From: a virus | Lineage: Duplodnaviria > Caudoviricetes | DNA: 64,000 nt | Reading direction: 5' to 3' (one strand) | Virus record (IMG/VR): IMGVR_UViG_3300009183_004565 | In this document: piece by piece, positions 2,468-58,038 of the stretch | How the letters are laid out: each line of letters begins with the position of its first letter | Position numbering within the stretch: the first letter of the stretch is position 1 | The notes under the pieces: generated by a model | The model's input: only the letters and a program-made list of their open reading frames with translations | The model's database searches: none | What the model was told of the DNA's origin: nothing | Translations under genes and position numbers: made by a program

Positions 2468-3415
2468 ATGAAACCAACAGAATTTATTGTAGAAACTAGC
2501 CAAATTGCACAAGAAGCAGATAACATGCATGCTGACCATGAAGTACAAATGGCCAGATCTGATTGCTATAGTGCAGCCAAATACGCCATTGAGCTACATC
2601 GTATGCTTAAAGAGATCAGCGAACAACAAGGACTGGATGGCTGGGTAAGCGAAAAGATTACACTAGCAAATGATTACTTACGCTCAGTGCATGAGTATCT
2701 AGGGCACGAAATGGCACATGGTCAAGAGCAGGCCATGATGAGCTTCACTGCAGAAGCTGCAGAGTATGCCGTTGATCAATTGCTAGTAGAAGATGATTAC
2801 GATGATGCTGTGGCTGATTTCTTATCCAAGAACAAACCTACAGTAGGTAAAACACACAAGCCAAGAAAATCAGAACGTTTAGGCGGTAGTAGACATATTG
2901 GCGGTGGTGGAGAAAAAATGAAAGCAAGTCGCACAGGAATAAGTTCTAAGCCAACAGGTAAAGCTGTTGCAGGTCAAGCTAGTCTAGGCGAGGATGGCCA
3001 GAAAGGCATGAGTCGTGCTGCTAAAGGCTATGAGAAGTACGGCAAAGAGGGCATGCAAGCATTAGCCAAGGCCGGACGTGAAGGAAAAGATTTAACTAAG
3101 ATTAGAGACAAGTACAACAAATACGATAAAGGTGTATCAGAAGTGGCAATGAGTCCTGCTCCAACTCCACAAAAAAGTGGCATTCCATCAGATGCAACAA
3201 CCACAGTACCAGGAATGAAGGCTACCCCGGCTGATTTAAAGAAAGCTAACTCAAGTGCAGTTATTGGCGAAATGGCCACAGGTGGTGGATCCAGTTCGGG
3301 CGGTATTGCTACAAGCATGGGCGGCCCAGGACATAAATCAACATCGGGCGTTCCCAAGAAGGTTGGTAATGTACACAAGTCAAAAAAAATTGCAGTGGGC
3401 AAAGGCGTTTACTAA
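2468..3415 (+). CDS. modular low-complexity protein, candidate internal head protein
   Basis: N-terminus MKPTEFIVE resembles T4 internal-protein signal MKTYQEFIAE; internal LVE/LGE/VSE/IGE module boundaries. Confidence 0.65.
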   Translation: MKPTEFIVETSQIAQEADNMHADHEVQMARSDCYSAAKYAIELHRMLKEISEQQGLDGWVSEKITLANDYLRSVHEYLGHEMAHGQEQAMMSFTAEAAEYAVDQLLVEDDYDDAVADFLSKNKPTVGKTHKPRKSERLGGSRHIGGGGEKMKASRTGISSKPTGKAVAGQASLGEDGQKGMSRAAKGYEKYGKEGMQALAKAGREGKDLTKIRDKYNKYDKGVSEVAMSPAPTPQKSGIPSDATTTVPGMKATPADLKKANSSAVIGEMATGGGSSSGGIATSMGGPGHKSTSGVPKKVGNVHKSKKIAVGKGVY

Positions 3416-15673: not shown

Positions 15674-16405
15674 ATGCGAGATTACTTACTCGATATAGTA
15701 TCACACACTCATAGTTTGGGTGTTATTGATTTAGTTAAAATTACCGGTACTGATTCGTTGACTCTTGTTAACGCAGTTGGCGAAGAACGTGTGGCTATTG
15801 TGGAAGCACAATTTCATAATCCTGTTCCAGAGTTTATGGGTACCTTTGGTATGCCTAATCTGGGCAAACTTAATACCATTCTTAATATTCCTGAGTACAA
15901 GGAAGATGCCAAACTGTCTATTATCTCTAAAGACGTCGAAGGTGTCAAGACACCCGAAGGCATTCATTTTGAAAACAAAGAAGGAGATTTTAAAAATAGT
16001 TATCGATTCATGAGTGCCAATGTAGTAAACAACACTTTGCAAACAGTTAAGTTTAAAGGTGTTAAATGGGGAGTAGAAATTGAACCCAGCGTGACTTCGA
16101 TACAGAAACTTCGATTTCAAGCACAAGCCAATAGTGAAGAAACAAGTTTTATTGCCAAAGTTGAAAATGGTAATTTAGTATTCTATTTTGGTGATCATAG
16201 TAGTCATGCTGGTAACTTTGTGTTTGCACACGATGTAGCAGGAACATTGACCAAAGCATGGCATTGGCCAATTGCTGCTGTAATTAGTATTTTGGCATTG
16301 CCTGGTGATAAAATGATTAGATTCAGTGACGAAGGTGCAGCTCAAATTACGGTGGATTCTGGATTAGCCGTTTATAATTATATCTTGCCAGCACAAACCA
16401 AGTGA
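15674..16405 (+). CDS. probable DNA polymerase sliding clamp (gp45-like)
   Basis: 243 aa, alternating beta/alpha pattern ending YNYILPA, close to polB, own strong promoter and SD. Confidence 0.55.
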   Translation: MRDYLLDIVSHTHSLGVIDLVKITGTDSLTLVNAVGEERVAIVEAQFHNPVPEFMGTFGMPNLGKLNTILNIPEYKEDAKLSIISKDVEGVKTPEGIHFENKEGDFKNSYRFMSANVVNNTLQTVKFKGVKWGVEIEPSVTSIQKLRFQAQANSEETSFIAKVENGNLVFYFGDHSSHAGNFVFAHDVAGTLTKAWHWPIAAVISILALPGDKMIRFSDEGAAQITVDSGLAVYNYILPAQTK

Positions 16406-17046
16406 TAGATTTTATAGAATATTATAAAACAAAGGGTCATGTGTTCGGCGAATGTATGAGTAAAGCCGACACTGACCTTATGTACGTTAATATTCCTAAA
16501 AATGCCAGTTCATGGACCAAACCTAATTTAAAAGATTGGGGATGGGAGAATTACAACTATCATACTGATAATTTGTATCATAAACATGCTATAATAGTTT
16601 TGCGTAATCCAGTTGAACGTTGGTTAAGTGGCATTGCTGAATACATGTATCTGTACCATAGAAATTTAGATACAGCACATTTTTCAAATTGTTTTTTTGA
16701 TTTAGTATTTGATAGAATAGCATTTGACGATCACACCGAACAACAAGTATTATTCTTAGAAGGATTGAATCTTACTAACTGTACTTTCTTTTGGTGTGGA
16801 TCTCAATATAGAGAACTATTCAGTCATTTTTTAAATAATCGCGGAATGAGTAATAGATATTTCAATTACGATTATCAACATGTGACACAAGATGATCCTA
16901 TCAGAAGTCAATTCAAACAAACTTTTAAACAGGTACTAGATAAAAATTCTAAATACACTACGAATTTGGATAATTTTTTTTCTAAAGACTACAAACTAAT
17001 TAGATCTATTAATTTTTATGACAATCATTCAATCTTTTCAAATTAG
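16402..17046 (+). CDS. sulfotransferase family 2-like protein
   Basis: YVNIPKNASSW (5'-PSB-like) and LRNPVERWLSG (3'-PB-like). Confidence 0.65.
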   Translation: MIDFIEYYKTKGHVFGECMSKADTDLMYVNIPKNASSWTKPNLKDWGWENYNYHTDNLYHKHAIIVLRNPVERWLSGIAEYMYLYHRNLDTAHFSNCFFDLVFDRIAFDDHTEQQVLFLEGLNLTNCTFFWCGSQYRELFSHFLNNRGMSNRYFNYDYQHVTQDDPIRSQFKQTFKQVLDKNSKYTTNLDNFFSKDYKLIRSINFYDNHSIFSN

Positions 17047-17668
17047 AGGACTAATTGACCCAACAGAAAAATTTATATTCCTGGATGTATCAAAAAATGC
17101 CTCTACAAAGATTCTAAATACTCTGCGTAATGCCGAATGGACCAATTTGCCTGTTATGGAACGAAAAGAAAAAAATAATTTTCTTAACGACAAAATACTT
17201 TTTTCTGTACTAAGGGAACCATATGAGAGATGGGTAAGCGGATTTACAACATATGCTAAGTTGCCAGGAGCCAGGGGAACTCTTAATCTCTCGTTGTATA
17301 GATTATTAAACTCAGATCATTGGTACATTACTTTACAATCAATATTTGACTTTAGTGATAATTTTGAATTTGATATTCATACTCAATTACAATGCAATTG
17401 TTTTGACAGTTATAATGATACAAATACAGATATTAACTTTTTTCTACTTAACGAAAATGTTTGGTCCAATTTGCAAAATTGGTGCGATACTGTTAATTTA
17501 GAAATATTTTTTAACGATCGTTATGTAAATCAAACAGCCAAATCAAATTTAATATATAATCGAATAGTATCGTTTCTAGATACAAATCCTCGTTATAAAG
17601 AAAAATTAATGACTTGGTTACAACCTGATTACGATTTTTTTAACTCAGTGAAATTTGTTGCCCAATGA
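17018..17668 (+). CDS. sulfotransferase family 2-like protein
   Basis: FLDVSKNASTKI and LREPYERWVSG. Confidence 0.65.
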   Translation: MTIIQSFQIRGLIDPTEKFIFLDVSKNASTKILNTLRNAEWTNLPVMERKEKNNFLNDKILFSVLREPYERWVSGFTTYAKLPGARGTLNLSLYRLLNSDHWYITLQSIFDFSDNFEFDIHTQLQCNCFDSYNDTNTDINFFLLNENVWSNLQNWCDTVNLEIFFNDRYVNQTAKSNLIYNRIVSFLDTNPRYKEKLMTWLQPDYDFFNSVKFVAQ

Positions 17669-18309
17669 AATTAATAAAATACTGGTACGCGGACTCTCTA
17701 ATAGATCCAGATCAAAAATTTTGGTATCTTCCAATATATAAAAATGCCAGCACTAAGATTACCTCATGTTTAAAAAGAAAGAATTGGGATACACTAATTC
17801 GCACCAATATAATCAACGAAGATAAGTTTGTTAATAAATCTGTGCAATTTGCAATACTTCGCGACCCATACGAGCGTTGGATCTCTACTTATGTTTCTTA
17901 TATTAAAAATCCTATATTTGATCAATCTTCTTTGAATTCTCTGTTAGCATCAAAAAATAAAGATGATTTTGTTGAATTGCTATTTAATCGTGCACCTATT
18001 CAAGAATTTGATATGTATACCAATTTACAATCTGTAGCACTTTTAGATCATCCAGACTTAAAAAAAATTAACTTTTTTTGGCTCAATGGTCAGACTGGAT
18101 ATCAATTAAATAAATGGCTTCAGTCTCATAATGAAATAACATCATTGAATAACAGTATAGAAAACGGGATTGATAAAAAAGACCCACTATACCGAGAAGT
18201 AATTTCTTTTTTATTTAATTACAAGAATCATAAAATTAAAAACAAAATAATGGATTATTTACAACCAGACTACGATTTTATAAGCGGAATTAATTTTTAT
18301 GCAAGATAA
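17665..18309 (+). CDS. sulfotransferase family 2-like protein
   Basis: YLPIYKNASTKI and LRDPYERWIS. Confidence 0.65.
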   Translation: MKLIKYWYADSLIDPDQKFWYLPIYKNASTKITSCLKRKNWDTLIRTNIINEDKFVNKSVQFAILRDPYERWISTYVSYIKNPIFDQSSLNSLLASKNKDDFVELLFNRAPIQEFDMYTNLQSVALLDHPDLKKINFFWLNGQTGYQLNKWLQSHNEITSLNNSIENGIDKKDPLYREVISFLFNYKNHKIKNKIMDYLQPDYDFISGINFYAR

Positions 18310-19846
18310 TTTAACAAGTAAACAAAATGATTACGCAGTATTCTTACCTGCTATCTCGGGCTTCTATGCAACTTTTATAGGAAAGCAGCGTGTTAACAAC
18401 GACTATGTTGACCCTGCACGTTTTCCTGTAGGACTAACTGACTTAGAGCAAATGAATTGGCTTAACAGTCAGCAATCTTGGTTTCCGTATCGCTGGAGTT
18501 TGTATTCAGGTGGTCATGCCAATTTGGATTTAACCAAAGACGATCCAAGCGAGGACATGGTTCGTAAACGCGAACCGGGTACATTCATGTTAGGTGACTC
18601 AGGTGGATTCCAAATTGCCAAGGGTTTATGGGAAGGTGATTGGAAAGCCAACTCAGGTTGCCCCAAGGCTCAAGGTAAACGCGAAGCGGTACTTAAATGG
18701 CTGGATGGCATTGCTGATTACGGCATGATTCTTGATATACCTACCTGGGTAACTAAAGATCCCAAGGCCAGCGCCGCCTGTCAAATCAAAACAGTTCCTG
18801 AAGCTATTGCAGCAACAAAGTTTAACAATGAATACTTTATTGCAAACAGAAAAGGCAAAGACAACGGTGGTGCCAAGTTCTTAAATGTGTTACAAGGTTC
18901 TACACACACCAATGCAGAATCTTGGTATCAAGAAATGAAAAAGTATTGCGATCCTGCACAGTATCCTGGCAAACACTTTGATGGGTGGGCAATGGGCGGA
19001 CAGAACATGTGTGATGTACATTTAATCCTAAAGCGATTGATTGCATTACGTTACGACAATTTACTACAAGAAGGTGTTCATGATTGGATGCACTTCTTGG
19101 GTACTTCAAAACTAGAGTGGGCATTACTACTCACAGATATACAGAGATCAATACGCCGATATGTTAACCCTTCTTTTACTATTTCCTTTGACTGTGCTAG
19201 TCCTTTCCTTGCTACGGCGAATGGACAAGTCTACCACGAAATTGACCTTACCCCAGGACAAAAATGGTCCTATAGAATGAATCCCAGTGCCGACGATAAA
19301 AAATATTCCACAGATACTCGCAGTTACAAAGACGGCACTATACAAGACGGTTTCTGGAAACATTTTGACGAAAGTCCGATTAGCCAACGTTTACAAATGA
19401 AAGATATTTGTATATATAAACCCGGCGACCTAAATAAGAATGGCAAGGAAGGCAAGACTTCTTGGGATAGTTTCAGTTATGCATTGCTAATGGGGCATAA
19501 CGTATGGACGCACATTGAATCAGTTCAACGTGCCAATCGTGAATATGATGCCGGCAACTATCCTGCTATGATGCAGTATAGTGGCCCCGGACAAGATAAG
19601 TTTAAAGATATCATTGATAGTATTTTTGCTGCGCCTGACAAACAAACAGCACTTGATATCGTTGAACATTATAGTAAGTATTGGATGGAAATTGTTGGCA
19701 CTAGAGGCAACAAAGGTAAAAAAGCGTTGAATTCTGAAACAATGATGGATGTGCATTTTGAATTAGAAGGCAGTAGTGTTAAAGTAGAGAAGTCCAAGAA
19801 AGAAAAACCCTTGGCAATTTTAAATCCAGATCTTTTTGAGGTATAA
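18299..19846 (+). CDS. dpdA: TGT-fold guanine transglycosylase, DpdA-like (7-deazaguanine insertion into DNA)
   Basis: TGT motifs DSGGFQ, LDIP, NVLQG, GWAMGG, HFLG, SFDCAS; folE/queD/queE in the same region. Confidence 0.8.
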   Translation: MQDNLTSKQNDYAVFLPAISGFYATFIGKQRVNNDYVDPARFPVGLTDLEQMNWLNSQQSWFPYRWSLYSGGHANLDLTKDDPSEDMVRKREPGTFMLGDSGGFQIAKGLWEGDWKANSGCPKAQGKREAVLKWLDGIADYGMILDIPTWVTKDPKASAACQIKTVPEAIAATKFNNEYFIANRKGKDNGGAKFLNVLQGSTHTNAESWYQEMKKYCDPAQYPGKHFDGWAMGGQNMCDVHLILKRLIALRYDNLLQEGVHDWMHFLGTSKLEWALLLTDIQRSIRRYVNPSFTISFDCASPFLATANGQVYHEIDLTPGQKWSYRMNPSADDKKYSTDTRSYKDGTIQDGFWKHFDESPISQRLQMKDICIYKPGDLNKNGKEGKTSWDSFSYALLMGHNVWTHIESVQRANREYDAGNYPAMMQYSGPGQDKFKDIIDSIFAAPDKQTALDIVEHYSKYWMEIVGTRGNKGKKALNSETMMDVHFELEGSSVKVEKSKKEKPLAILNPDLFEV

Positions 19847-27777: not shown

Positions 27778-28112
27778 TTGCCTTACCGCCAGGCTGTACT
27801 GTTACCTATGCTGTTTGGGTCGATGTAAATCGACTCACCAACGAAATGGTTGAATGGTATCGTCAAGTTGATGGCAAGGTTTACGAAGATCGTTGGTATG
27901 ATACTCGAGGTAGAGAACAAACAGTAAACTACGTGAGTTATGGCAAGAGCAAACGATGCCATCATCATCACAACGGTCAAGGTGGTACTAGGTTACACTT
28001 CCACGGTGATGATGCTAGTGCGGCCAGTATGTTTATATTAAAGTTTTTCAATCACGTAACTAGTAATAATTTACAAGACGTAATGGAACGTCATGCTCAC
28101 GAGGTTGACTAA
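27774..28112 (+). CDS. hypothetical protein
   Basis: ATGA-coupled start at 27774 (MIALPPGC). Confidence 0.6.
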   Translation: MIALPPGCTVTYAVWVDVNRLTNEMVEWYRQVDGKVYEDRWYDTRGREQTVNYVSYGKSKRCHHHHNGQGGTRLHFHGDDASAASMFILKFFNHVTSNNLQDVMERHAHEVD

Positions 28113-28119
28113 GTAAATT

Positions 28120-28689
28120 ATGATCAATGTAGGAATATATCTAGAATCTAAGCCATTTAATGATAATTGGCCAAAAATTAAAATCTATCATAACAATAGT
28201 CTACTCGACGATGTAATTTGTCATCAGTCACTAGAGTTACATTATCAAATTAAACCTAGCGTTGATAACCTTCTCTCAATTGAGATGTACGGAAAAAGAT
28301 TCGGCGATGGCGGAATATATGATGTGGACAGTAACGGACAAGGACAAGAAATTCAAATTAAAGATATTACTTTTGATGATGTGTCAATTGATCACTTGTT
28401 GTCAAAAGTTGAATTTGAAACCCACTGGACTGAACACCAGCTTTCTTCACACAACGAAGAATTTAGATCTAAATATAATAGATATCAATCCAACGGTATG
28501 ATAGTCTTTAACGGAAGACTGAATTTTAATTTTTCAACTCCTATATATGATTTTTTAATTGATAAAAAGTATAAAGTTGATCATAACAAAGACATTGCTT
28601 ATTTTAGTAACAGCACGGAACTATTTAATTTTCATCTTGGATTAAGTAAATTAGAAGAAATTAAAAAAATTATTACAGAAAATGAATAA
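28120..28689 (+). CDS. hypothetical beta-rich protein; paralogue of 723..1199
   Basis: AT-rich ORF overlapping the B12 radical SAM start; shared C-terminal motif. Confidence 0.55.
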   Translation: MINVGIYLESKPFNDNWPKIKIYHNNSLLDDVICHQSLELHYQIKPSVDNLLSIEMYGKRFGDGGIYDVDSNGQGQEIQIKDITFDDVSIDHLLSKVEFETHWTEHQLSSHNEEFRSKYNRYQSNGMIVFNGRLNFNFSTPIYDFLIDKKYKVDHNKDIAYFSNSTELFNFHLGLSKLEEIKKIITENE

Positions 28690-30187
28690 AAAAGTTTTAG
28701 TATTATCAGTTCCGCGACTCGAACCACATCGCCCCCCAATTAGTGCTACTCTTGTTGCTACTGTATGCAAAAATCACGGTTGTGATGTTAAGTTACGAGA
28801 TCTAAATATTGAATTTTATCATTATTGTAAATTAAATAATATAGAATATCAAAAATTTGATCCAATTTGGGATAGATATGTAGAACCATCAAATTTAGAA
28901 CTATCACATATACACACTCATATAGATAATTTTATTGCAACTGAAGATTTGCATTCTTACGATATCATTATGATCAGTGTATTTGGCTCAAGTAGCCATT
29001 ACTTCACTGAAATGTTATTAAAAAAAATTGCAGTAGATAGATCTTATAAAATTTTATTAGGTGGTTCGGGAGCATTTGTGTCTATTATGAATCGTGGGCA
29101 TAATTCTTTTGTTGTGGAGATGCAAAAACAAAATCTAATAGACGATTTTATAAAAGGCGAGTGCGAAGAATCCTTAAAATATTATTTAGACGGTAAAGAA
29201 TATCCAGGAATTAATAACTATGATCCTGTGCAGATTGATGATTTAGATTCATTACCGTTAATTGATTATAGTTTTGTTGACTTAGATGCTTATGAATATC
29301 TCACTGAAACTAAAGATGTTTATGTAGAAGGTAGTAGGGGATGTGTACGTAAATGTACTTATTGTGATGTTCAGAAATTTTGGCCAAAATATCGTTTCAG
29401 AAGTGGTCAGCATATTGCACACGAGCTTATTAACAATTACGAAAAATTTGGCATTAAAAAATTTTACTTTACTGATAGCTTAGTTAACGGAAGTTTAAAA
29501 TCATTCAATCAGATGTGCGATATTCTTGCTAATTACCCATATAGCAAAGAAATTAGCTGGGGAGGACAATTTATTTTCAGAAATGAAAGAACTGTGCCAC
29601 CGGAGCATTTTGAAATGATCGCTAAGGCCGGCGGTACTAATACTTTTTACGTAGGAATAGAAACTGGCAGTGATCAAGTTAGAAAACAAATGGGTAAAAA
29701 TTTTACCAACGAAGATATTAGTTATCAACTTGAAGAATTTAAAAAGAATAAATTGAAATGTACTTTTTTAATGTTTCCTGGCTATATTACAGAAACTGAA
29801 AAGGATCATCAAGACACATTAGATATGTTTTTAAGATGGCAAAAGTATGTAGCCAGTGGAACTATCAATGGTTTAGAATTAGGTAGTCCTTTGATAGTTC
29901 TCGAAGGAACCCCACTAGCTAGTATGATTGATGAGTATCAAATTGCATTTTTAGAGAGTGATAGAATTACTACTGGTAATTTCTGGGTATCAAAATTAAA
30001 TCCAAGTTTTGATTTTGAGCAGCGAGCTATTAGGCAAATCAGACTATACGAAGAAGCTGCAAAATATAAATGGCCTATTTGGAGATTTGAATCAAGAGCT
30101 GAAGAATTAAAACAAACTCTAATTAGATTTTATGAAATAAAAGAAAAAAATCCAACATATAAGATAACACCAATTAAAATTAATTAA
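28682..30187 (+). CDS. cobalamin-binding radical SAM enzyme (class B methyltransferase-like)
   Basis: N-terminal B12-binding pattern (HRPP, DLN, ILLGG), EGSRGCVRKCTYCD, FTDSLVNG, VGIETGS, FPGYITET. Confidence 0.85.
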   Translation: MNKKVLVLSVPRLEPHRPPISATLVATVCKNHGCDVKLRDLNIEFYHYCKLNNIEYQKFDPIWDRYVEPSNLELSHIHTHIDNFIATEDLHSYDIIMISVFGSSSHYFTEMLLKKIAVDRSYKILLGGSGAFVSIMNRGHNSFVVEMQKQNLIDDFIKGECEESLKYYLDGKEYPGINNYDPVQIDDLDSLPLIDYSFVDLDAYEYLTETKDVYVEGSRGCVRKCTYCDVQKFWPKYRFRSGQHIAHELINNYEKFGIKKFYFTDSLVNGSLKSFNQMCDILANYPYSKEISWGGQFIFRNERTVPPEHFEMIAKAGGTNTFYVGIETGSDQVRKQMGKNFTNEDISYQLEEFKKNKLKCTFLMFPGYITETEKDHQDTLDMFLRWQKYVASGTINGLELGSPLIVLEGTPLASMIDEYQIAFLESDRITTGNFWVSKLNPSFDFEQRAIRQIRLYEEAAKYKWPIWRFESRAEELKQTLIRFYEIKEKNPTYKITPIKIN

Positions 30188-50232: not shown

Positions 50233-51329
50233 GCATAATTCCTTTTTTTGGTGTTGCTAGACAATATGCAAACTTGCGAGAGGAAATACTTGATGTTACT
50301 GATCGTGTATACTCTACTGGTCGGGTTTTAGACGGCGAATACACTAGAGAGTTTGAATTACAGATAGCAAGACGATGCCAGAGAGCGTATGCACTTGCAG
50401 TCAACTCCGGCACTCAGGCCTTAATCTTTGCACAGATGGCCACCATGGATCGCCCGCCATATTCAGTTTTAATTCCCACAGTTAGTTTTGTAGCCACTAT
50501 TAATAGTGTGCTTATGAATAATCATACCCCGGTATTCTGCGATGTTGATTATAAAGGATTACTGGATCTTGATTCATATTCGTATAAGCTAGATCAAAGT
50601 GTTGGTGCAGTTATGTATGTAAATCTATTTGGTAACTGCCTTGACTGGGATAGATTCCAAATGCATACCAAGTTCTTTAATGATGATCTAGTTATAATCG
50701 AAGATGCTGCACAAAGCTTTGGTGCCAGTTATAAAGGTACGCCTAGTGGCAAGATGGGTGATGTAAGTGTGTTAAGTTTTGACCCAACCAAGAATCTAAA
50801 CAACTACGGATCGGGTGGTATGATACTTACAGACGATTTTCAAATATACGAAACCGTTCGCGGACTTAGAGACAACGGCAAAATCATACACGACACCCCA
50901 GGCACTAACAGTAAGATGAGCGAGGCTGACTGTGCTCAGATGTTGATTAAACTAGGACACTTTGACGCATGGCAGCGTCGTAGATCGGAAATTGCCAACT
51001 ACTACATACAAGAACTATATCAATACGTAGACATTCTTACTTCCAACGAAGGAGTAGAACATGCCTGGCATAAGTTTGTTATTAGAACAGAACATAGATC
51101 TGCATTAATGAGTCACTTATCATATCAAGGAATTGAAACCAAGGTACACTACGACTATGCATTATACGATCTAGGTGTAGGATTTAATTATGTAGATTAT
51201 AGTCGAGATTTATACACAGAAACAAGTACTTTTACTAGAGAATGTTTAAGTTTACCCGTATATCCTGAACTGTCCGATGCAGAAGTAGAAACTGTAGTAG
51301 AAAAAATTAAGCAGTATATAGATTATTAA
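50229..51329 (+). CDS. DegT/DnrJ/EryC1/StrS sugar aminotransferase
   Basis: VNSGTQAL, SFVAT, IEDAAQSFG, SFDPTKNL...GSGGM; ATGA-coupled start 50229. Confidence 0.92.
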   Translation: MSIIPFFGVARQYANLREEILDVTDRVYSTGRVLDGEYTREFELQIARRCQRAYALAVNSGTQALIFAQMATMDRPPYSVLIPTVSFVATINSVLMNNHTPVFCDVDYKGLLDLDSYSYKLDQSVGAVMYVNLFGNCLDWDRFQMHTKFFNDDLVIIEDAAQSFGASYKGTPSGKMGDVSVLSFDPTKNLNNYGSGGMILTDDFQIYETVRGLRDNGKIIHDTPGTNSKMSEADCAQMLIKLGHFDAWQRRRSEIANYYIQELYQYVDILTSNEGVEHAWHKFVIRTEHRSALMSHLSYQGIETKVHYDYALYDLGVGFNYVDYSRDLYTETSTFTRECLSLPVYPELSDAEVETVVEKIKQYIDY

Positions 51330-53523
51330 ATCTATTCTTCAACCAAGCCCATTCAAAACTTAACATAAGTTTATCGTAGTCCCCCGCAACTTCTTCGTAG
51401 TAATTTACAGCATCAGCTGATCCACGCAAGCACCATTCGGCATAATCACCATCTGCTACTGTTAACCAAGTGTTTAATCTGTGCTCAGTCTCTAGTGTAG
51501 GTTGTGTGGCCATAAAGTGTTTTAACTTAACTACTTCACGGAATGCTGTGCGCCAAGTCATCCAAGGATCTTGATTGAATCGTGCTATTCCACTTAATAA
51601 AGGTACACTCTCATGAGGCTGACTTAATGTAAAGTCAATACCAGGATTGTTATTCTCTAGTACTAGTTTCTTATTATACGCAATCATACCTTGATGTCCA
51701 TACACCAATCCGTTGACAGGATTTTGTGCATTAAAGATATAGTGTTTGGGCTCTTGCCAATAGTCTGGTTGCCAATCATACCAAGGAAAACTTCCGCCCG
51801 CTACTTCAAGTTTGGCAAATACAGCAAAGAACCAAGGCGTGGCGCTTGCACGGGCTGCTGCTTGATATGCTGCCACACGGCCGTCGACTCCCTGTATCCA
51901 TGTAACTGCACTGTTTGTCATGTATTCAGTGTGACGATACATCATTTCTTCATCAGGTTCGCCGTTACTAATGAATACGATATCCAGCGGTGGCACACTT
52001 GAGTAACGTTTAATCTCTTTGTTTATGTAAGGATAATCATATACTTGTCGCTTAATATAACTTTTTGCTTCCCTAGGCACAAGAGATGTAGATCCACTTT
52101 GACTTATTGGAATAATAGTTCTGTCTTCGGCTCTCCAAAGACACGGAACAGTGTAATTATTCATGATATAATCTCCAACACTAGAAAAAATAGCATACGG
52201 AAAATCAAATTGATACTGTTGTATTGCATCAACAATAGTATCTTCAGAATAGTTTACTAACGTGGGAGGAAATCTTTCTACTTGTTGGTCAGTGCAATAA
52301 TTAATTACATTAAACCAATCAAGTATTGCTAATTCATACAATTGGCGTTTAAACGATTCAACGTGAATAAAGAAAGTGTCTCCCCTTCGTTGATTGTCGC
52401 TAGCAAATACATGAACCATTTCTTTTTGTGATGGATCTGGGTGCCATGTAAAGTCAAAATCTGTGTAATCGCAGATACTACTAATAATCCAAACAAACTC
52501 AGTAGTTGCTAGATTGACTATACGCTTAAAAACATTTAAATGATTATCAACATAACGTGTTAATTTGATATCAGGATAAGATTCTTGTAGTGTTTTGAAC
52601 TGATTGTTGCTTTGTGGATTTAAAAAATCCATGTAAAAGATTTGCGTGGCATTGTTACGTATGCGCTGATTACTCATATACTTGATACCTGCGGTTCCGC
52701 GATATACAGGACCACCATCACGTTGCCATTGTGTAGGAAAATGATATTCGTAGTCCGGTTCATCTAAATCAGGGTGCCATGAATAGTCAAAATCTGAGTC
52801 ATTGATTCCGCTAGGAATATCCCAATTGCTGCGATCTTCTAACTTACTTACTTGTTGACTATACACATACTTGATACCTGCAGATCCGGGATATACCGGT
52901 CCTCCATTACGTTGCCATTGTGTACCAAAACGATATTCGTAGGGCGGATCTAAGGGATTAGGATGCCAGGAATAATCAAAGTTGGTATCATTGATGTTGC
53001 TGGGTATAATCCAGTTGCGTTTATCTTCAGTGACTGTAACAGTAAAATCATTACATAACTTAATTCCAGTTGCACCTGGTACATGATAAACTAATCCGCA
53101 ACTGGTTTGATGTTGACTGGCAAAGTGATACGTGTAAGGAGGGTCGTGCGAATCAGGATGCCAACTACGATCTATGCCCAAGTAGCACAATAGTTTTGGG
53201 ACAAGTAATTTCCAGTTTTCTTCATTGCTCAATCTTGTTACAGATTGTTCTGTGCGCCAATTCCATTCTTTATTATGCGCAGTATCTTTGTTTGCTAGAT
53301 ACACATCGCCGTTGCGTTGCCACTGACTAGAGAATACATGAACATGATCTTGTTCCCAAGGTGCCGGATTCCAATCAAAATCAAAATTGGTGTAATCATT
53401 ACCACCATAAATATACCAGTAGAATCGAGTTCTACTCTTATCAGCAGCATCCTCTAAACTGTTAGCAGGCTGTTCATGTGCAAATCTATTGGGCTTGGGC
53501 CCAAAATAAAAAACATCAAACAT
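51307..53523 (-). CDS. repeat-containing glycosyltransferase-like protein
   Basis: Six F(D/P)xxW(H/N/Q)P modules; C-terminal LDIVFISNGEP...YG..G...WRTAFRE GT-A-like domain. Confidence 0.65.
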   Translation of the reverse strand: MFDVFYFGPKPNRFAHEQPANSLEDAADKSRTRFYWYIYGGNDYTNFDFDWNPAPWEQDHVHVFSSQWQRNGDVYLANKDTAHNKEWNWRTEQSVTRLSNEENWKLLVPKLLCYLGIDRSWHPDSHDPPYTYHFASQHQTSCGLVYHVPGATGIKLCNDFTVTVTEDKRNWIIPSNINDTNFDYSWHPNPLDPPYEYRFGTQWQRNGGPVYPGSAGIKYVYSQQVSKLEDRSNWDIPSGINDSDFDYSWHPDLDEPDYEYHFPTQWQRDGGPVYRGTAGIKYMSNQRIRNNATQIFYMDFLNPQSNNQFKTLQESYPDIKLTRYVDNHLNVFKRIVNLATTEFVWIISSICDYTDFDFTWHPDPSQKEMVHVFASDNQRRGDTFFIHVESFKRQLYELAILDWFNVINYCTDQQVERFPPTLVNYSEDTIVDAIQQYQFDFPYAIFSSVGDYIMNNYTVPCLWRAEDRTIIPISQSGSTSLVPREAKSYIKRQVYDYPYINKEIKRYSSVPPLDIVFISNGEPDEEMMYRHTEYMTNSAVTWIQGVDGRVAAYQAAARASATPWFFAVFAKLEVAGGSFPWYDWQPDYWQEPKHYIFNAQNPVNGLVYGHQGMIAYNKKLVLENNNPGIDFTLSQPHESVPLLSGIARFNQDPWMTWRTAFREVVKLKHFMATQPTLETEHRLNTWLTVADGDYAEWCLRGSADAVNYYEEVAGDYDKLMLSFEWAWLKNRFNNLYTA
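52681..53058 (-). repeat. tandem 189-bp (63-aa) intragenic duplication
   Basis: CTTGATACCTGC...ACGTTGCCATTGTGTA...GATATTCGTAG begins at 52681 and again at 52870. Confidence 0.8.
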
Positions 53524-54733: not shown

Positions 54734-55037
54734 CGCATTCAAGACAAGGGCTATGAGTAACAAATAAAGTAGCTTGATCCCCGGAATCGTTTGACTTTGC
54801 CAACTTTGCAATAGCATTTGATTCGGCGTGTAGTACTTCTGCTTTTGTTTTTAATGATCCATCTTCGGATACATCCTCACAAACATTGCTCCATCCGGCT
54901 GGCATTCCATTATATCCAATGGAAATAATTCTATCATCCTTGACTACGATAGCACCAACTTTTAATCTACGTGCGTGACTTAATTCAGCAAATGTGTGTG
55001 CTGTCTGCATATAAGCACGTTTAAACTTTTCCTTCAC
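54615..55037 (-). CDS. dCMP deaminase
   Basis: VGAIVV, GYNG, HAESNA, SPCLEC. Confidence 0.93.
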   Translation of the reverse strand: MKEKFKRAYMQTAHTFAELSHARRLKVGAIVVKDDRIISIGYNGMPAGWSNVCEDVSEDGSLKTKAEVLHAESNAIAKLAKSNDSGDQATLFVTHSPCLECAKLIYQSGIQQVYYQEKYRDDLGLEFLQASGVDVEQLPV

Positions 55038-55402
55038 TCTACACCCATTTGCTTTCTAATTGCAGTTGCCGATATTGCCTGTGTGGTATCATCAAACGTT
55101 TCTTGTTCTATTAGGTATCCTACATCTCTACCATACGTAATATTTACAATATTAGGAACCACTAAAATTTCATACATTCCTTTGTAAATAGGATCAAGAT
55201 CTGCACGAATATAATTCTTTACTTCTTCTAGACCAAAAGGGTTACTATAGTTCCATCCTTGACAATCTCGTATCATAATGCAGACCTGCCCGGTCTTAGC
55301 AATAGCACGTTCAAATAATGCACGATGACCTGCATGCCAAGGTTGCCACCGTCCTAGCATTTGTACTGTAGGCTTTTGCCAATCAAAAGTTTTTTCTGTC
55401 AT
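55034..55402 (-). CDS. minimal HxGH nucleotidyltransferase
   Basis: GRWQPWHAGH, IMIRD, NPF, YGRDVGY, ISATAIR; coupled to APS kinase. Confidence 0.85.
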   Translation of the reverse strand: MTEKTFDWQKPTVQMLGRWQPWHAGHRALFERAIAKTGQVCIMIRDCQGWNYSNPFGLEEVKNYIRADLDPIYKGMYEILVVPNIVNITYGRDVGYLIEQETFDDTTQAISATAIRKQMGVE

Positions 55403-56034
55403 GGTTTACCCCATTTAATTTTATGCCATATACGTTCATGAAAATAGTATAAAACAATCTTTGTAAAAAATTCAATGCTGGCTATTCCTGCTGCAAGATG
55501 AGGTTGCCCGGTTAATAACCAACTAACAACAAATGTATCAAGGCTGCCAGTGAATCTCCATGTAACTGCTTTGGTAATAGATCTGATACGACTCTCTTGT
55601 CGCTGTTTAAAATTCATTGCAAGTTTATTTGCAATCGTATTGGCCCAGCGTTCGGCGCTTTTCGCCATAATACGATAATCGTATTGCTCGGGTGCTACAA
55701 ATACTCTATTAGTATCTTCATAACGACTAGTATCAATAGTATCCAACCAGATAACCAAATTGGCTCCATATGCCTCCCTCATTGCAGGTAAAGGAGCAAC
55801 AAAGTCACTAATTACAAAGTCTGCACTAGACTTTTCTGCCAGGTCTCGCATACGGTGCCCTTGGCGTATACGACCTGCTTCACTAAAATCCCAATCGTCG
55901 AATCGTTCACGTACCTCATCAGCATTAAACCATTCAACCGTAAAACCTTTATTGTGTAATTCTGTTTGAAGGGCTGTGGCTAGATAAGTTTTACCCGAAC
56001 CAGGAAGTCCCATTATTAATATTCGAACGCTCAT
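55399..56034 (-). CDS. cysC: adenylyl-sulfate (APS) kinase-like protein fused to a C-terminal DUF2061 domain
   Basis: MGLPGSGKT, NADEVR, DFS..GR..Q, FVAP; C-terminal ES..RS..KA.TWR...YYFHERIW.KIKWG. Confidence 0.75.
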   Translation of the reverse strand: MSVRILIMGLPGSGKTYLATALQTELHNKGFTVEWFNADEVRERFDDWDFSEAGRIRQGHRMRDLAEKSSADFVISDFVAPLPAMREAYGANLVIWLDTIDTSRYEDTNRVFVAPEQYDYRIMAKSAERWANTIANKLAMNFKQRQESRIRSITKAVTWRFTGSLDTFVVSWLLTGQPHLAAGIASIEFFTKIVLYYFHERIWHKIKWGKP

Positions 56035-56035
56035 A

Positions 56036-56698
56036 TTAATTCCATTTTTGTATCCATTGATTGGATAATAAATTAAATTTACTTATATCTAAATTAACTT
56101 CGCCAATCTGATAGTTGCTAATTAACTGAAATAATTGTTGTGCTAACTGGTTATTGTTACTCCTACTAAGGTGATTTGGTCTTTTGTCGTTAACGAGACT
56201 GCCATCTTTAGATGCTATTTCATCTAAGCTGATTGCTGATAAACTCGGAGAGACTTTCATACCATTAAGCACATATTTTTGATTCTGGGGAAACGAAAAT
56301 AAATGTACAACTTTAATGTTATTCCATTGTTGATTTATTTCTTCAAACCATTTTAACTGCGCCCAACTTAAAAACATTTCGTTGTGTATATACTTATAAT
56401 ATAAACCAATTGCACGATTTAACTCATTGTTTGACTCTAAATTTGAAAAATTTACTTGATTAATTTCCTCATCAGTTGTCGGTATACGTTGTGCATTTGT
56501 ATGTACAAATACGATTATTTCACAGTTATCAATATGTTCCGGGGGCAATCTCTCTAAAAAACTTTTTACACTCCACCAAGAGCCTCCAGCTAAACCAAAA
56601 TTAATAAGATTCATGTCTAGTGACTTAGCCAGTAGTCTAGGCCAGAAATTTGGAGTAGTACAAAAACTATCACCAACTATAATTATATTTTTCAACAC
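56036..56698 (-). CDS. SGNH hydrolase-like protein
   Basis: IVGDSFC, GLAGGS, RPNHL. Confidence 0.6.
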   Translation of the reverse strand: MLKNIIIVGDSFCTTPNFWPRLLAKSLDMNLINFGLAGGSWWSVKSFLERLPPEHIDNCEIIVFVHTNAQRIPTTDEEINQVNFSNLESNNELNRAIGLYYKYIHNEMFLSWAQLKWFEEINQQWNNIKVVHLFSFPQNQKYVLNGMKVSPSLSAISLDEIASKDGSLVNDKRPNHLSRSNNNQLAQQLFQLISNYQIGEVNLDISKFNLLSNQWIQKWN

Positions 56699-56769
56699 TA
56701 AAACCTTTATTGTCTAATTTCTTTTAAAAGGCTGCTAGACTAGTAGTCCCATTATTAATATTTGAATGC

Positions 56770-58038
56770 TCATTGTTCTTCCAACCATGGAAATAAGCTA
56801 CGCCAATTGGTATTGCGTCTACGATCTATTTCATCTAAATAAATTTTTAATGTTTCGATCATATCATTGTTTGCTGGTGTAGTATCTACTTGTTTGTAAA
56901 TTCCCGTCATATGCTCATAGTTTTGATTTTGATAATCTGTGTCTCTTGGCATTAAATTTAAAATTTGTTCAAATTCGTTTTTGAATAATCCAGGAACAAA
57001 AATATCAGGCATCATGTACGGAGGAGCATTTGCTGTCATGAAACTGAAACTGATTTTTCTTTTAGGATCATTGTTCCATGATGCTAGTCTAATGGTATTC
57101 CATTCATTTATTTTGGCAATATATTCGGGCATTGTTTTAATGCTTAACGCATTAATTGCAGCATTTACACAAAGAACAATATCCTTGTCCAACAGATACT
57201 CCATGTTAGCAGTATACTCATTTAAATCTAATCCGTATCTAATATACTCTTGCTGTGGTCCCCAGCAATCCAAACTTCCGGTAATTTGCAATTCCTTAAT
57301 TTTTTTATCTTGTTTAAGTTTTATCATCTTATTGATAATATTTTTAAACTTATTAGGATTTACTTTTAAATTACTGATCAAAGTAAATCTCATATTAGGT
57401 GCTGGAAATTTTTCAAAAAAATCTAAACACATTTCTAATTCAGGCTGATGAAAAGGTTCGCCACCCAGTATATGTAGATCTTGTAGGCCATGACCATATT
57501 TTTCTAACCATTGAAAAAACTTTTCTCGCATTTGGTCATATTCTTTATTAAATCCTACTTGTTCAGTGGTCTTTAAAAGAATCTGCTTATTTTGAAAATT
57601 TCCAAATCTATTATTTTCTGCTTCCCACATAGAACTAAAATGCGGTCCGCAATATAAACAACTCATGTTACATGTATTAGAAAAATAAACTTCTAGTATT
57701 TTTGGAGTTACAACATTTGTACTATTATCTTCAAGAAGTTCATCCGGAACTTCGTAATGCATGCTAGACAATTGAAATTGTCTGTCGCTAACACCTCCTG
57801 CTTCTTCTATTTTTTGACAGTATTCGCATCCTGCTTTTGGCCATTCGCCTTGGCGCATCATCTCTCGAGTTGCAATTTTACGAGGAGTATTATGAAATGA
57901 ATCAAATGTGTCAACTGTAATTTTATCGTGATTGACTCTATGACAACTGCTAGTGGTTCCTATGTTTAAAAAAACGGTGGACCAAGTCCATTTTAAAAGA
58001 CACGCTGTATCTGATTTGATTGGGAATATTTGTTTCAA
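56770..58038 (-). CDS. radical SAM protein with twitch/SPASM-type Cys cluster
   Basis: ACLLKW...SCH...CEYC; CNMSCLYC; ILGGEP; LISN; GSLD. Confidence 0.9.
   Translation of the reverse strand: MKQIFPIKSDTACLLKWTWSTVFLNIGTTSSCHRVNHDKITVDTFDSFHNTPRKIATREMMRQGEWPKAGCEYCQKIEEAGGVSDRQFQLSSMHYEVPDELLEDNSTNVVTPKILEVYFSNTCNMSCLYCGPHFSSMWEAENNRFGNFQNKQILLKTTEQVGFNKEYDQMREKFFQWLEKYGHGLQDLHILGGEPFHQPELEMCLDFFEKFPAPNMRFTLISNLKVNPNKFKNIINKMIKLKQDKKIKELQITGSLDCWGPQQEYIRYGLDLNEYTANMEYLLDKDIVLCVNAAINALSIKTMPEYIAKINEWNTIRLASWNNDPKRKISFSFMTANAPPYMMPDIFVPGLFKNEFEQILNLMPRDTDYQNQNYEHMTGIYKQVDTTPANNDMIETLKIYLDEIDRRRNTNWRSLFPWLEEQ

Follow-up and report, generated by a model that had tools for sequence, protein, structure and literature searches.

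Sulfation is a common tailoring of glycans and metabolites, and several well-described systems offer points of comparison for the phage locus considered here. The carbohydrate sulfotransferases of Pfam family PF03567, represented by the structures 3f5f and 5t03, hold a lysine-containing 5'-phosphosulfate loop and an RDPxxRxxS 3'-phosphate helix. The bifunctional PAPS synthases, such as PAPSS1/2 (1x6v) and the Aquifex Sat-APS kinase (2gks), are single polypeptides, and in PAPSS the kinase domain comes first. Tailoring of rhizobial Nod factors combines the NodH sulfotransferase with PAPS synthesis by NodP/NodQ, which are CysDN/CysC-type enzymes, together with the NodU carbamoyltransferase and the NodS methyltransferase. 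Finally, phage DpdA systems modify DNA with 7-deazaguanines; we know of no Dpd system that includes a sulfotransferase, and full-text literature searches turned up no published account of a sulfotransferase, or of a PAPS supply, encoded by a phage.

The window analysed here, a 64,000-nucleotide stretch of DNA from a giant freshwater phage of the Caudoviricetes (IMG/VR record IMGVR_UViG_3300009183_004565), shares features with each of these systems (Table 1). Three tandem sulfotransferase-like reading frames, ST1, ST2 and ST3, are present at 16402-18309, as the initial annotation had proposed, and all three are intact. Together with both flanking genes they overlap one another by 4-29 nt and therefore leave no space for internal promoters; ST1 begins with a GTG codon that overlaps the stop of the 243-aa gene upstream, and the end of ST3 overlaps the start of the 515-aa gene by 11 nt. 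The AT-richness ascribed to the three genes is real, with a GC content of 28.4-29.6% (29.6% in ST1) where the flanking genes have 38-41% and the window as a whole 38.6%. So is their paralogy: ST2 and ST3 are 34% identical (E 6e-36), and ST1 and ST3 are 24% identical (E 6e-11). Since mutual identity within the triplet is just 24-35%, the copies probably differ in the position or the acceptor that they sulfate.

Table 1. Features of the sulfotransferase slot and of the kinase-transferase module, in positions of the 64,000-nucleotide window
Feature	Coordinates	Strand	Description
243-aa gene	15674..16405	+	'Clamp' of the initial annotation; conserved upstream flank of the slot
ST1	16402..17046	+	214-aa sulfotransferase-like protein, common 'clade A' type
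ST2	17018..17668	+	216-aa sulfotransferase-like protein, accessory 'clade B' type
ST3	17665..18309	+	214-aa sulfotransferase-like protein, accessory 'clade B' type
515-aa gene	18299..19846	+	TGT-fold DpdA-like transglycosylase; downstream flank of the slot
122-aa transferase	55034..55402	-	HxGH nucleotidyltransferase, candidate minimal sulfate adenylyltransferase
Kinase	55399..56034	-	APS-kinase-like P-loop kinase with C-terminal DUF2061; 211 aa, trimmed kinase at residues 1 to ~140

Both sequence motifs by which the genes were originally recognized occur in every copy. The KNAS(S/T) element of the 5'-phosphosulfate loop reads KNASS in ST1 and KNAST in ST2 and ST3, and the R(N/E/D)P..RW.S element of the 3'-phosphate site reads RNPVERWLS, REPYERWVS and RDPYERWIS, respectively. 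Among 145 members of the phage sulfotransferase family, the loop lysine is conserved in 142, the asparagine in 131, the alanine in 126 and the serine in 120; the arginine of the 3' motif, R(N/E/D)PxERWxS, is found in all 145 and its serine in 127. Residues K26, R66, P68, R71, W72 and S74 are near-invariant, and the PAPS-binding motifs are kept across 880 family representatives as well as in ST1-3. The Pfam profile Sulfotransfer_2 (PF03567; gathering cut-off 22) matched ST3 at 31.2 bits and ST2 at 22.1 bits, along with 68 of the 145 family members. ST1 gave no direct match to Pfam; it belongs to the A2 family profile and is a paralogue of ST3. ST2 also matched phrog_3347 weakly. When the 145-sequence profile was compared with PDB sequences, marginal matches to 3-O-sulfotransferases were obtained over the 3' motif, which aligned to the equivalent motif of those enzymes, and one low-complexity match was dismissed as spurious; a profile of the three window sequences matched no PDB sequence.

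Structure prediction points the same way. The AlphaFold2 model of ST3 is compact (pLDDT 93.9), and the best 13 rows of its VIA-align comparison are all sulfotransferases, headed by heparan sulfate 2-O-sulfotransferase (3f5f; Z 9.0, rmsd 3.9 over 171 residues); the 6-O-sulfotransferase 5t03 scored Z 7.7. The best Foldseek rows were nearly all sulfotransferases, at E values of 0.03-0.4 and none at E<=0.001. The phage proteins thus have in common with the PF03567 carbohydrate sulfotransferases the fold, seen in the ST3 model, the lysine-containing loop and the 3'-phosphate helix. They differ in their size, which at ~210 aa is about two thirds of the animal catalytic domain, in being soluble and lacking a membrane anchor (sequence analysis found no transmembrane segment in ST1-3), and in identities of only 13-15%. 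These findings support the conclusion that ST1-3 are sulfotransferase-fold proteins that keep both predicted PAPS-binding motifs. The only near-invariant histidine of the family sits in an FDxHTxxQ element C-terminal of the 3' motif (FDDHTEQQ in ST1); this position, 118, is histidine in 136 of the 145 members and tyrosine in ST3. A proposal that His118 is the catalytic base was dropped for want of residue-level structural support.

ST1-3 are divergent copies within a Sulfotransfer_2-like family that our searches detected only in phages. Every true member recovered comes from a single clade of giant phages, and a search of 401 proteobacterial genomes gave just eight weak partial matches of 30-33 bits. 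Nucleotide and protein searches of a collection of deposited phages with the sulfotransferase region found nothing. In the family tree two clades are separated with 99% support: ST1 falls in a 65-row clade that occupies the first position in sulfotransferase-bearing relatives, and ST2 and ST3 fall in the rarer accessory clade B. Orthologues of each of the three copies are kept in relatives.

The initial annotation placed the triplet between a clamp and dpdA, and the second of these assignments has held up better than the first. The 243-aa gene matched nothing in Pfam or NCBIfam and only phrog_12062, of unknown function; it is always syntenic as polB-MTase-243aa. The 515-aa gene contains GDSGGFQ; neither it nor its family matched Pfam or PDB by sequence, and its identification comes from a fold search alone, in which the best 50 Foldseek matches to its AlphaFold2 model (pLDDT 83.4) were all tRNA-guanine transglycosylases (E ~1e-7, probability 1.00). 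As in known Dpd systems, then, a TGT-fold protein with the DSGGFQ motif is encoded here and is followed by genes for FolE, a QueD-like protein and a radical SAM enzyme, which are deazaguanine-synthesis genes. Unlike those systems, this one has an optional sulfotransferase that is absent from most relatives with a DpdA-like gene. The gene order polB-MTase-243aa-ST-515aa was found in all 80 loci gathered with a three-row sulfotransferase alignment, which made the sulfotransferase look as if it always accompanied the replication/DpdA block. That idea was rejected once loci were sampled from the 515-aa gene instead, and the slot proved to be mostly empty: among 80 such loci, no gene is called there in 48, a sulfotransferase fills it in 24, and radical SAM-SPASM or unidentified ORFs make up the rest. 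In one relative (L122) exactly this position, flanked by the 243-aa and 515-aa genes, is taken by a kinase-transferase fusion of the kind discussed below. The triplet is an accessory cassette in a variable slot of a replication gene block, and the sulfotransferases of the slot evolve much faster than the neighboring 515-aa gene (27-87% identity versus 49-98%).

Some 37 kb from the triplet lies a second element that the initial annotation read as an APS-kinase-like gene coupled to a minimal HxGH nucleotidyltransferase. The description is accurate: the two genes overlap by 4 nt at 55034-56034, and the 122-aa product contains GRWQPWHAGH. The kinase scored 39.2 bits against Pfam APS_kinase (PF01583; cut-off 21.1), with residues 2-88 aligned to model positions 2-91 of 152 and nothing aligned beyond position 91. 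Against TIGR00455 (CysC) it reached 38, so far under the cut-off of 138.7 that it is not a CysC equivalog. A profile of the kinase family nevertheless found APS kinases as all ten of its best PDB matches (E 1e-9 to 2e-5), and the matching chains include those of PAPSS1/2 and the Aquifex enzyme. APS kinases are marked by a P-loop, a downstream Asp/Arg pair and Phe-Ser...Arg substrate motifs; the phage protein has a GLPGSGKT P-loop, and its family-invariant NADxVR and WDFSxxGRxRQ elements align to the corresponding APS-kinase stretch, with several canonical residues differing. The C-terminal DUF2061 (75.6 bits) is a two-helix membrane domain for which the literature offers only incidental and uninformative mentions.

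The transferase is harder to place. Its match to Pfam CTP_transf_like (19.2 bits) is under the cut-off, and its profile found NadM NMN adenylyltransferases first in PDB (2qjt, 8.5e-7), with no ATP sulfurylase among the matches at E<=10; the ATP sulfurylase (Sat) profile PF01747 likewise had no match at E<=10 anywhere in the whole 144-kb record. The proposal that the 122-aa protein belongs to the ATP sulfurylase family is accordingly not supported, its nearest solved relatives being NadM-type enzymes. The HxxH motif, H23-A-G-H26 within the family-invariant GRWQPWHxGH, does not discriminate for ATP sulfurylase because it is common to the whole superfamily. At the same time the protein fails the full-length NadM-type cut-off: it is 122 aa long, compared with 168-181 aa in solved NadM enzymes, and NMN adenylyltransferase models (TIGR01527, NF002243) scored 24-30 bits against cut-offs of 127-449, with alignment restricted to the N-terminal 60-70 residues, 13-83. 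Since similarity to ATP sulfurylase is undetectable, a sulfurylase role is suggested by context only. Kinase and transferase form one fused polypeptide in most relatives, as in the bifunctional PAPS synthases and in the kinase-first order of PAPSS. The phage module departs from those enzymes in its transferase half, about a third of the size and with no detectable similarity to ATP sulfurylase, in a kinase that aligns over residues 2-88 only, and in the extra DUF2061 hairpin.

The context in question is the company that the module keeps in other genomes. Of 80 viral loci, 30 have a sulfotransferase gene no more than 3 kb from the module; in 12 SAR86 loci one is placed immediately upstream of it, and SAR116 provides further cases; the adjoining sulfotransferases belong to three Pfam families, Sulfotransfer_3, _1 and _2. 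Sulfotransfer_3 genes were observed no more than 2.5 kb from the transferase gene in 16 of 24 cases, where 5.8 were expected by chance. In SAR86, every one of the 10 genomes searched has 1-4 strong sulfotransferase genes. Three of these genomes, two of them complete chromosomes, were tested for PF01747 and CysD without a match, and in these three the module kinase is the only APS-kinase match above cut-off. Full-text searches for SAR86 with sulfotransferase or ATP sulfurylase found nothing relevant. Among sulfotransferase-bearing relatives of the present phage, both near-complete ones (G001 and G093) also have the module. Conversely, a complete relative of 383 kb (G027) encodes the module along with a DpdA-like protein but gives no match to Sulfotransfer_1, _2, _3 or the phage family, and phages Sano and DLP_6 have the fusion and no member of the phage family; the module is therefore not tied to recognisable phage sulfotransferases. 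In the present genome the module is housed in a ~25-kb glycan block, next to a NodU/CmcH-type carbamoyltransferase and among sugar-tailoring genes. The resemblance to the Nod-factor set is that a dedicated PAPS supply appears to be encoded with a sulfotransferase and glycan-tailoring enzymes. The differences are a trimmed kinase and a 122-aa NMNAT-like transferase in place of NodPQ, the 37 kb between the sulfotransferases and the module, and a phage rather than a symbiosis island as the setting.

Taken together, these observations make it reasonably probable, in our judgment, that the co-transcribed slot genes encode PAPS-dependent sulfotransferases fed by PAPS that the phage makes with the module. 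A phage sulfation pathway is the best reading because the module neighbors sulfotransferases in many unrelated phages and in SAR86 genomes that have no canonical route. The full pathway put forward in the initial annotation is in this sense partly supported, by the sulfotransferase fold and motifs and by the neighborhood link, and not in the membership of the transferase in the ATP sulfurylase family. We envisage that the cassette, one common-type copy (ST1) and two accessory-type copies (ST2 and ST3), would be co-transcribed with the 243-aa and DpdA-like genes to give soluble, cytoplasmic, PAPS-dependent enzymes. The phage itself most likely supplies the donor PAPS, in two steps: sulfate would be converted to APS by the 122-aa HxGH transferase acting as an adenylyltransferase, and the APS would then be phosphorylated to PAPS by the trimmed APS-kinase-like enzyme. 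Each sulfotransferase would hold PAPS with its KNAS(S/T) loop and RxPxxRWxS helix and pass the sulfate to a hydroxyl or amino group. We infer both enzyme activities, and we do the same for the acceptor. A sugar, be it a nucleotide-sugar or the glycan that the block around the module assembles, is close to an even call; a host envelope component or a small molecule is a less likely recipient, for which we would allow a modest chance.

A modification on phage DNA would be another such recipient, with a chance that we put slightly higher than that of the envelope or small-molecule recipient and still well short of probable; we favor a sugar or glycan over DNA. In one form of the DNA proposal the enzymes would sulfate a group on a hypermodified base, such as a sugar borne by a 7-deazaguanine that the adjacent DpdA-like enzyme had put in, and the sulfate would be either the final mark or a leaving group for later chemistry; this form strikes us as improbable. 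It draws on the translational coupling of the triplet to the DpdA-like gene inside the polB-MTase-243aa block, on the retention of that position by distant family members, on the presence of the PAPS module itself in the same slot in L122, and on the deazaguanine-synthesis genes downstream. The initial annotation had likewise seen, in the proximity of replication and dpd genes, a hint of DNA as the target, but location is weak evidence because the slot is variable and mostly empty: it holds nothing in 48 of the 80 relatives with a DpdA-like gene, and elsewhere it carries unrelated cargo. Nor does DNA modification need the sulfotransferases, since G027 has a DpdA-like gene and none of them. By structure the ST3 model comes closest to carbohydrate sulfotransferases. 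The family has a median pI of 6.5, and two of the three copies, ST1 and ST2, are acidic, which is unusual for enzymes on polymeric DNA, although pI is too weak a pointer to DNA binding to settle the acceptor. We know of no sulfated DNA base. A more elaborate version, in which slot sulfotransferases, the DpdA-like enzyme and the phage PAPS pool together sulfate a group on a modified base and the number and type of sulfotransferases vary in an anti-restriction arms race, seems less likely again.

The module could also have nothing to do with sulfate, serving instead as a nucleotide-cofactor unit (an NadR-like nicotinamide riboside kinase with an NMN adenylyltransferase) or in sugar-phosphate activation, with the sulfotransferases drawing on host PAPS. 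The NadM-type nearest relatives of the transferase and its best NCBIfam matches invite this reading, as do the complete phage genomes that have the module and no recognisable sulfotransferase and the sugar-tailoring genes around it. We nonetheless consider it unlikely: the kinase half matches APS kinases and not ribosylnicotinamide kinases, the NMN adenylyltransferase scores fall far below their cut-offs and cover the N-terminal part only, the module adjoins three sulfotransferase families far above chance, and the SAR86 genomes tested have sulfotransferases and no other PAPS route. Least probable of all, by our estimate, is that ST1-3 make up a selfish cassette, or one in decay, with little present function, or that the fold serves another reaction. 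AT-richness, a variable location, the loss of the near-invariant histidine from ST3, the failure of Pfam to detect ST1 and rapid divergence relative to the 515-aa gene would all suit decay; three intact reading frames, PAPS-binding motifs kept in all copies and throughout the family representatives, persisting orthologues of each copy and a compact, high-confidence ST3 model would not.

Should the sulfation pathway that we favor prove correct, giant phages of a large clade, from fresh and marine waters, would have a self-contained route to sulfation, one that includes a miniature, unrecognised type of ATP sulfurylase, and sulfated phage or infected-cell products would exist that nobody has looked for. 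A sulfated modified base, if that were the product, would be the first sulfated DNA. The slot beside DpdA, filled in different phages by sulfotransferases, radical SAM enzymes or a PAPS synthase, supplies natural relatives with and without each for testing the target of modification. The implications would extend beyond phages, because the 122-aa type of transferase appears to be the sole PAPS route in the SAR86 genomes tested; SAR86 is a very abundant ocean lineage, and the observation bears on sulfate use in genome-streamlined marine bacteria. The DUF2061 membrane hairpin behaves as a third, mobile part of the module, and in one locus (L177) the order is kinase-transferase, DUF2061 and then a sulfotransferase of the phage family.

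The sulfotransferase triplet (ST1, ST2 and ST3) and the module formed by an APS-kinase-like gene and a small nucleotidyltransferase gene are a real finding and more than an annotation curiosity. Together they point to a PAPS-dependent sulfation pathway that combines sulfotransferases of an apparently phage-specific family with what is probably an unrecognized, minimal sulfate-activating enzyme. In our literature searches we found no publication dealing with phage sulfotransferases or with this kinase-transferase PAPS module. To the initial annotation we add the variability of the slot that holds the triplet, two sulfotransferase clades, the tRNA-guanine transglycosylase fold of a neighboring protein, three sulfotransferase families beside the module, two loci (L122 and L177) linking the module to the slot and to the triplet's family, and a complete relative (G027) that is a counterexample.

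The viral record containing the window is 144,478 bp long, with a CheckV completeness of 41%; since the genomes of its relatives reach 320-383 kb, it represents only part of a giant phage genome. Three AT-rich paralogous ORFs had been described, correctly in each checkable detail (coordinates, paralogy and GC content). GC content is 28.4-29.6% in the triplet, 38.6% in the window and 38-41% in the flanking genes; ST2 and ST3 are 34% identical (E 6e-36), and ST1 and ST3 24% (E 6e-11). The GTG start codon of ST1 lies inside the stop region of the preceding 243-aa gene, and the overlaps that follow (29 nt for ST1/ST2, 4 nt for ST2/ST3 and 11 nt for ST3/515-aa gene) leave no space for separate promoters, so that co-transcription of the triplet with its flanking genes is the simplest reading. 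Two more islands of low GC content, like the ST region, may mark other recently acquired cargo.

Coordinates of the features discussed (L and G designate loci and genome records other than the window)
Feature	Location	Strand	Remarks
ST1, ST2, ST3	window 16402-17046, 17018-17668, 17665-18309	+	three head-to-tail ORFs; 214, 216, 214 aa
243-aa gene	window 15674-16405	+	precedes the slot
515-aa DpdA-like gene	window 18299-19846	+	follows the slot
APS-kinase-like protein, 211 aa	window 55399-56034	-	N-terminal half resembles APS_kinase (residues 2-88, 39.2 bits); DUF2061 membrane hairpin at the C terminus (75.6 bits)
Transferase, 122 aa	window 55034-55402	-	invariant GRWQPWHxGH
738-aa repeat protein	window 51307-53523	-	several D-F/Y-x-W-H-P-x-P...Y-E-Y-x-F-x-T-Q-W-Q-R-x-G-G-P-V-Y-like repeats
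Low-GC islands	window 28001-30000, 56001-58000		31-32% GC
Slot with kinase-transferase fusion	L122:1822-4883		fusion at 2548-3354; 4-nt overlap with DpdA-like 515-aa gene
Radical SAM genes	L273:2491-3498, L261:2479-3498, L300:2588-3505, L254:3099-4226		same slot or between polB and methyltransferase; two with N-terminal SPASM/twitch domain
PF03601 (YeiH-type) membrane protein locus	L207:4652-6378		SAR86 chromosome CP097973.1
ST, kinase-like, kinase-transferase	G029:C1:155896-158340		177-kb record rated 100% complete; same order in L148-L150

Profile, motif and fold evidence agree with the original sulfotransferase-like call. Pfam Sulfotransfer_2 (PF03567) is matched by ST3 (31.2 bits) and ST2 (22.1 bits, cut-off 22); ST1 has no direct Pfam match. 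A profile of the three proteins retrieved 880 cluster representatives, nearly all of 190-250 aa, at E<=0.001 among 1.84 billion proteins. Within a 145-sequence alignment of the family, 68 members match PF03567 individually, and both predicted PAPS-binding signatures are nearly invariant: K-N-A-S (K 142, N 131, A 126, S 120 of 145) and R-D-P-x-x-R-W-x-S (R 145, P 144, R 142, W 136, S 127). When the AlphaFold2 model of ST3 (mean pLDDT 93.9, pTM 0.89) was compared with about 48,000 representative solved chains, rows 1-13 were all sulfotransferases, headed by heparan sulfate 2-O-sulfotransferase 3f5f (Z 9.0, rmsd 3.9 Å, 171 residues) and continuing with 3-O-, 6-O- and N-sulfotransferases. On the scale of that search, Z values of 7-9 are no better than intermediate; the assignment is nevertheless secure, because the top of the list is family-pure and the motifs are present. 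None of the three proteins contains a hydrophobic segment, and they should therefore be soluble cytoplasmic enzymes. Against the family profile, 401 sampled proteobacterial genomes gave only eight partial, weak matches (30-33 bits, compared with about 80-240 bits for phage members), and the family appears phage-specific as far as sampled. Residue 118, His in 136 of the 145 members (motif FDxHTxxQ) and a possible catalytic base, is Tyr in ST3 and its orthologues, pointing to changed chemistry or to a copy without catalytic activity.

The 82 sulfotransferases of the sampled loci fell into two clades, with 99% SH-aLRT support, in a quick maximum-likelihood tree. Clade A (65 rows) includes ST1 and nearly always occupies the first slot position; clade B (17 rows) holds ST2 and ST3, plus copies that other phages carry downstream of the 515-aa gene. 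The triplet thus consists of one common-type and two accessory-type copies and did not arise by recent triplication.

The slot itself is variable. All 80 viral loci found via the sulfotransferase have the order polB, methyltransferase, 243-aa gene, ST, 515-aa gene, and the distant ST representatives that we looked up share this order. From those loci alone the sulfotransferase appeared to be a fixed partner in a conserved functional unit, a view that we rejected once the 515-aa gene, carried by more than 600 viral contigs, was used to sample that phage clade. Among 80 loci so taken, 48 have nothing called between the 243-aa and 515-aa genes (which abut or overlap in 34 of the 48), 24 have one to three sulfotransferases, and the remainder hold different genes, among them some for N-terminal-SPASM radical SAM enzymes as well as small unknown ORFs. 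In the same loci the 515-aa gene is 49-98% identical and the sulfotransferase 27% to 87%. The radical SAM enzymes of slot loci are of the same kind as those filling a large sugar-tailoring block. The 515-aa protein has no sequence match in Pfam, NCBIfam or PDB; it contains GDSGGFQ, and its model (pLDDT 83.4) returned tRNA-guanine transglycosylases for all of the Foldseek top 50 (probability 1.00, E about 1e-7), which supports the "dpdA" label as far as the predicted fold goes. The sole match of the 243-aa gene is phrog_12062, of unknown function, with none in Pfam or NCBIfam, and its putative "sliding clamp" label comes only from position. The initial annotation placed the triplet correctly between these two genes, but that position counts for little as a sign of a DNA target, the slot being variable and mostly without a sulfotransferase.

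The module is separated from the triplet by about 37 kb. Its kinase scores 38 bits against the CysC equivalog model (cut-off 138.7); rows 1-10 of a PDB search with the family profile are all APS kinases (E 1e-9 to 2e-5), and the post-P-loop stretch (NADxVR, WDFSxxGRxRQ) aligns with the matching APS-kinase stretch. The transferase family is very strongly conserved (75-92% identity over thousands of environmental sequences), and by profile its nearest solved relatives are NadM-type NMN adenylyltransferases (2qjt, 8.5e-7; 1f9a, 3.6e-4). Since no ATP sulfurylase occurs among its PDB sequence matches even at E<=10, and PF01747 has no match in the 144-kb record, the transferase stands outside every known ATP sulfurylase family. 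Of the proposed PAPS supply, the kinase is closest to APS kinases, and the transferase, not a recognized ATP sulfurylase, would be a sulfate adenylyltransferase on gene context; a phage-encoded sulfation pathway is still the best reading, given the ST family and the module's sulfotransferase neighbors. Around the module are genes for a NodU/CmcH-type carbamoyltransferase, SGNH-like and radical SAM proteins, dCMP deaminase and DegT aminotransferase, an arrangement kept in relatives. The 738-aa repeat protein at the edge of this sugar-tailoring block has no Pfam or NCBIfam match.

We take the pair to be a probable PAPS synthase because it forms one polypeptide in most relatives, kinase first (phrog_10255), because of its sulfotransferase neighborhood, because the three SAR86 genomes tested show no other candidate route, and because it co-occurs with sulfotransferases in phages. 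Among 50 viral records with the transferase, 20 also have a Sulfotransfer_3 gene; these genes number 24, and 16 of them are no more than 2.5 kb from the transferase gene (5.8 expected by chance). Of 80 viral loci, 30 have a sulfotransferase no more than 3 kb from the module, and in many cases its gene runs into the beginning of the fusion; L138, from a 31.5-kb record rated 95% complete, is an example of this pairing. This neighborhood ties the module to sulfotransferases in genomes unrelated to the window's phage. Cellular genomes with the module are above all SAR86, with SAR116, Woeseiaceae and Marinoscillum; a Sulfotransfer_3 gene (135 bits) lies immediately upstream of the kinase in 12 SAR86 loci, and a Sulfotransfer_1 gene (90 bits) is the neighbor in a SAR116 genome. 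On contig L177 the kinase-transferase is followed by DUF2061 and then by a Sulfotransfer_2 gene of the same family as ST1-ST3. The module adjoins sulfotransferases of all three families; L177 ties it to the family of the triplet, and L122, where the fusion fills the slot, ties it to the slot. Strong sulfotransferase genes, one to four per genome, occur in 10 of 10 SAR86 genomes searched. In the three tested for PAPS-route genes (two of them complete chromosomes), PF01747 and CysD have no match and the module kinase is the sole APS-kinase-like match above cut-off, which makes the module their only candidate PAPS source. Within the phage clade, the module is present in both near-complete ST-bearing genomes (G001, 98%; G093, 92%) and in 8 of 10 ST-bearing contigs of at least 100 kb, the window's own record counted. 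On one SAR86 chromosome a PF03601 membrane protein, of a family commonly labeled a putative sulfate exporter, is encoded immediately upstream of separate kinase and transferase genes. In G029 and L148-L150 an extra kinase-like gene lies between the Sulfotransfer_3 gene and the fusion.

Evidence counter to this reading comes from the relative G027 (383 kb, completeness 100%), which carries the module and the DpdA-like gene and has no match to Sulfotransfer_1, _2, _3 or the triplet's family. G028 and G030 resemble it, except for a weak Sulfotransfer_1 match in G030, and the cultured phages Sano and DLP_6 have the fusion and no member of the triplet's family. Given G027, Sano and DLP_6, the module must serve something besides ST1-ST3-type enzymes; candidates would be unrecognized sulfotransferases, host enzymes or another reaction. 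The roughly 37 kb between module and triplet in the window, with the module placed among sugar-tailoring genes, also count against the reading.

As acceptor of the sulfate we tentatively favor a sugar or glycan, at somewhat less than an even chance. Sulfated DNA is the boldest and least supported part of the reading, and DNA-borne groups seem unlikely acceptors. DNA sulfation would fit the tight coupling of the sulfotransferases to a DpdA-like gene within the replication block and the single case of the putative PAPS synthase in the same slot, but most relatives carrying the DpdA-like gene have no sulfotransferase. Favoring a sugar or glycan over DNA, the nearest solved structures are carbohydrate sulfotransferases, the PAPS module is embedded in a sugar-tailoring block, other slot occupants are radical SAM tailoring enzymes of the kind found there, and the ST family is neutral to acidic (median pI 6.5). 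Nor do the host envelope or small molecules seem any likelier than DNA.

A third part accompanies the kinase-transferase module, the 52-residue, two-helix membrane domain DUF2061 (seen with it in G003, G004, G005, G007, G010 and G011). It makes up the C-terminal third of the window's kinase, forms a small ORF of its own behind the fusion elsewhere among phages, and is fused ahead of the transferase in protein P0332; it may anchor the module to the membrane or connect it with sulfate uptake.
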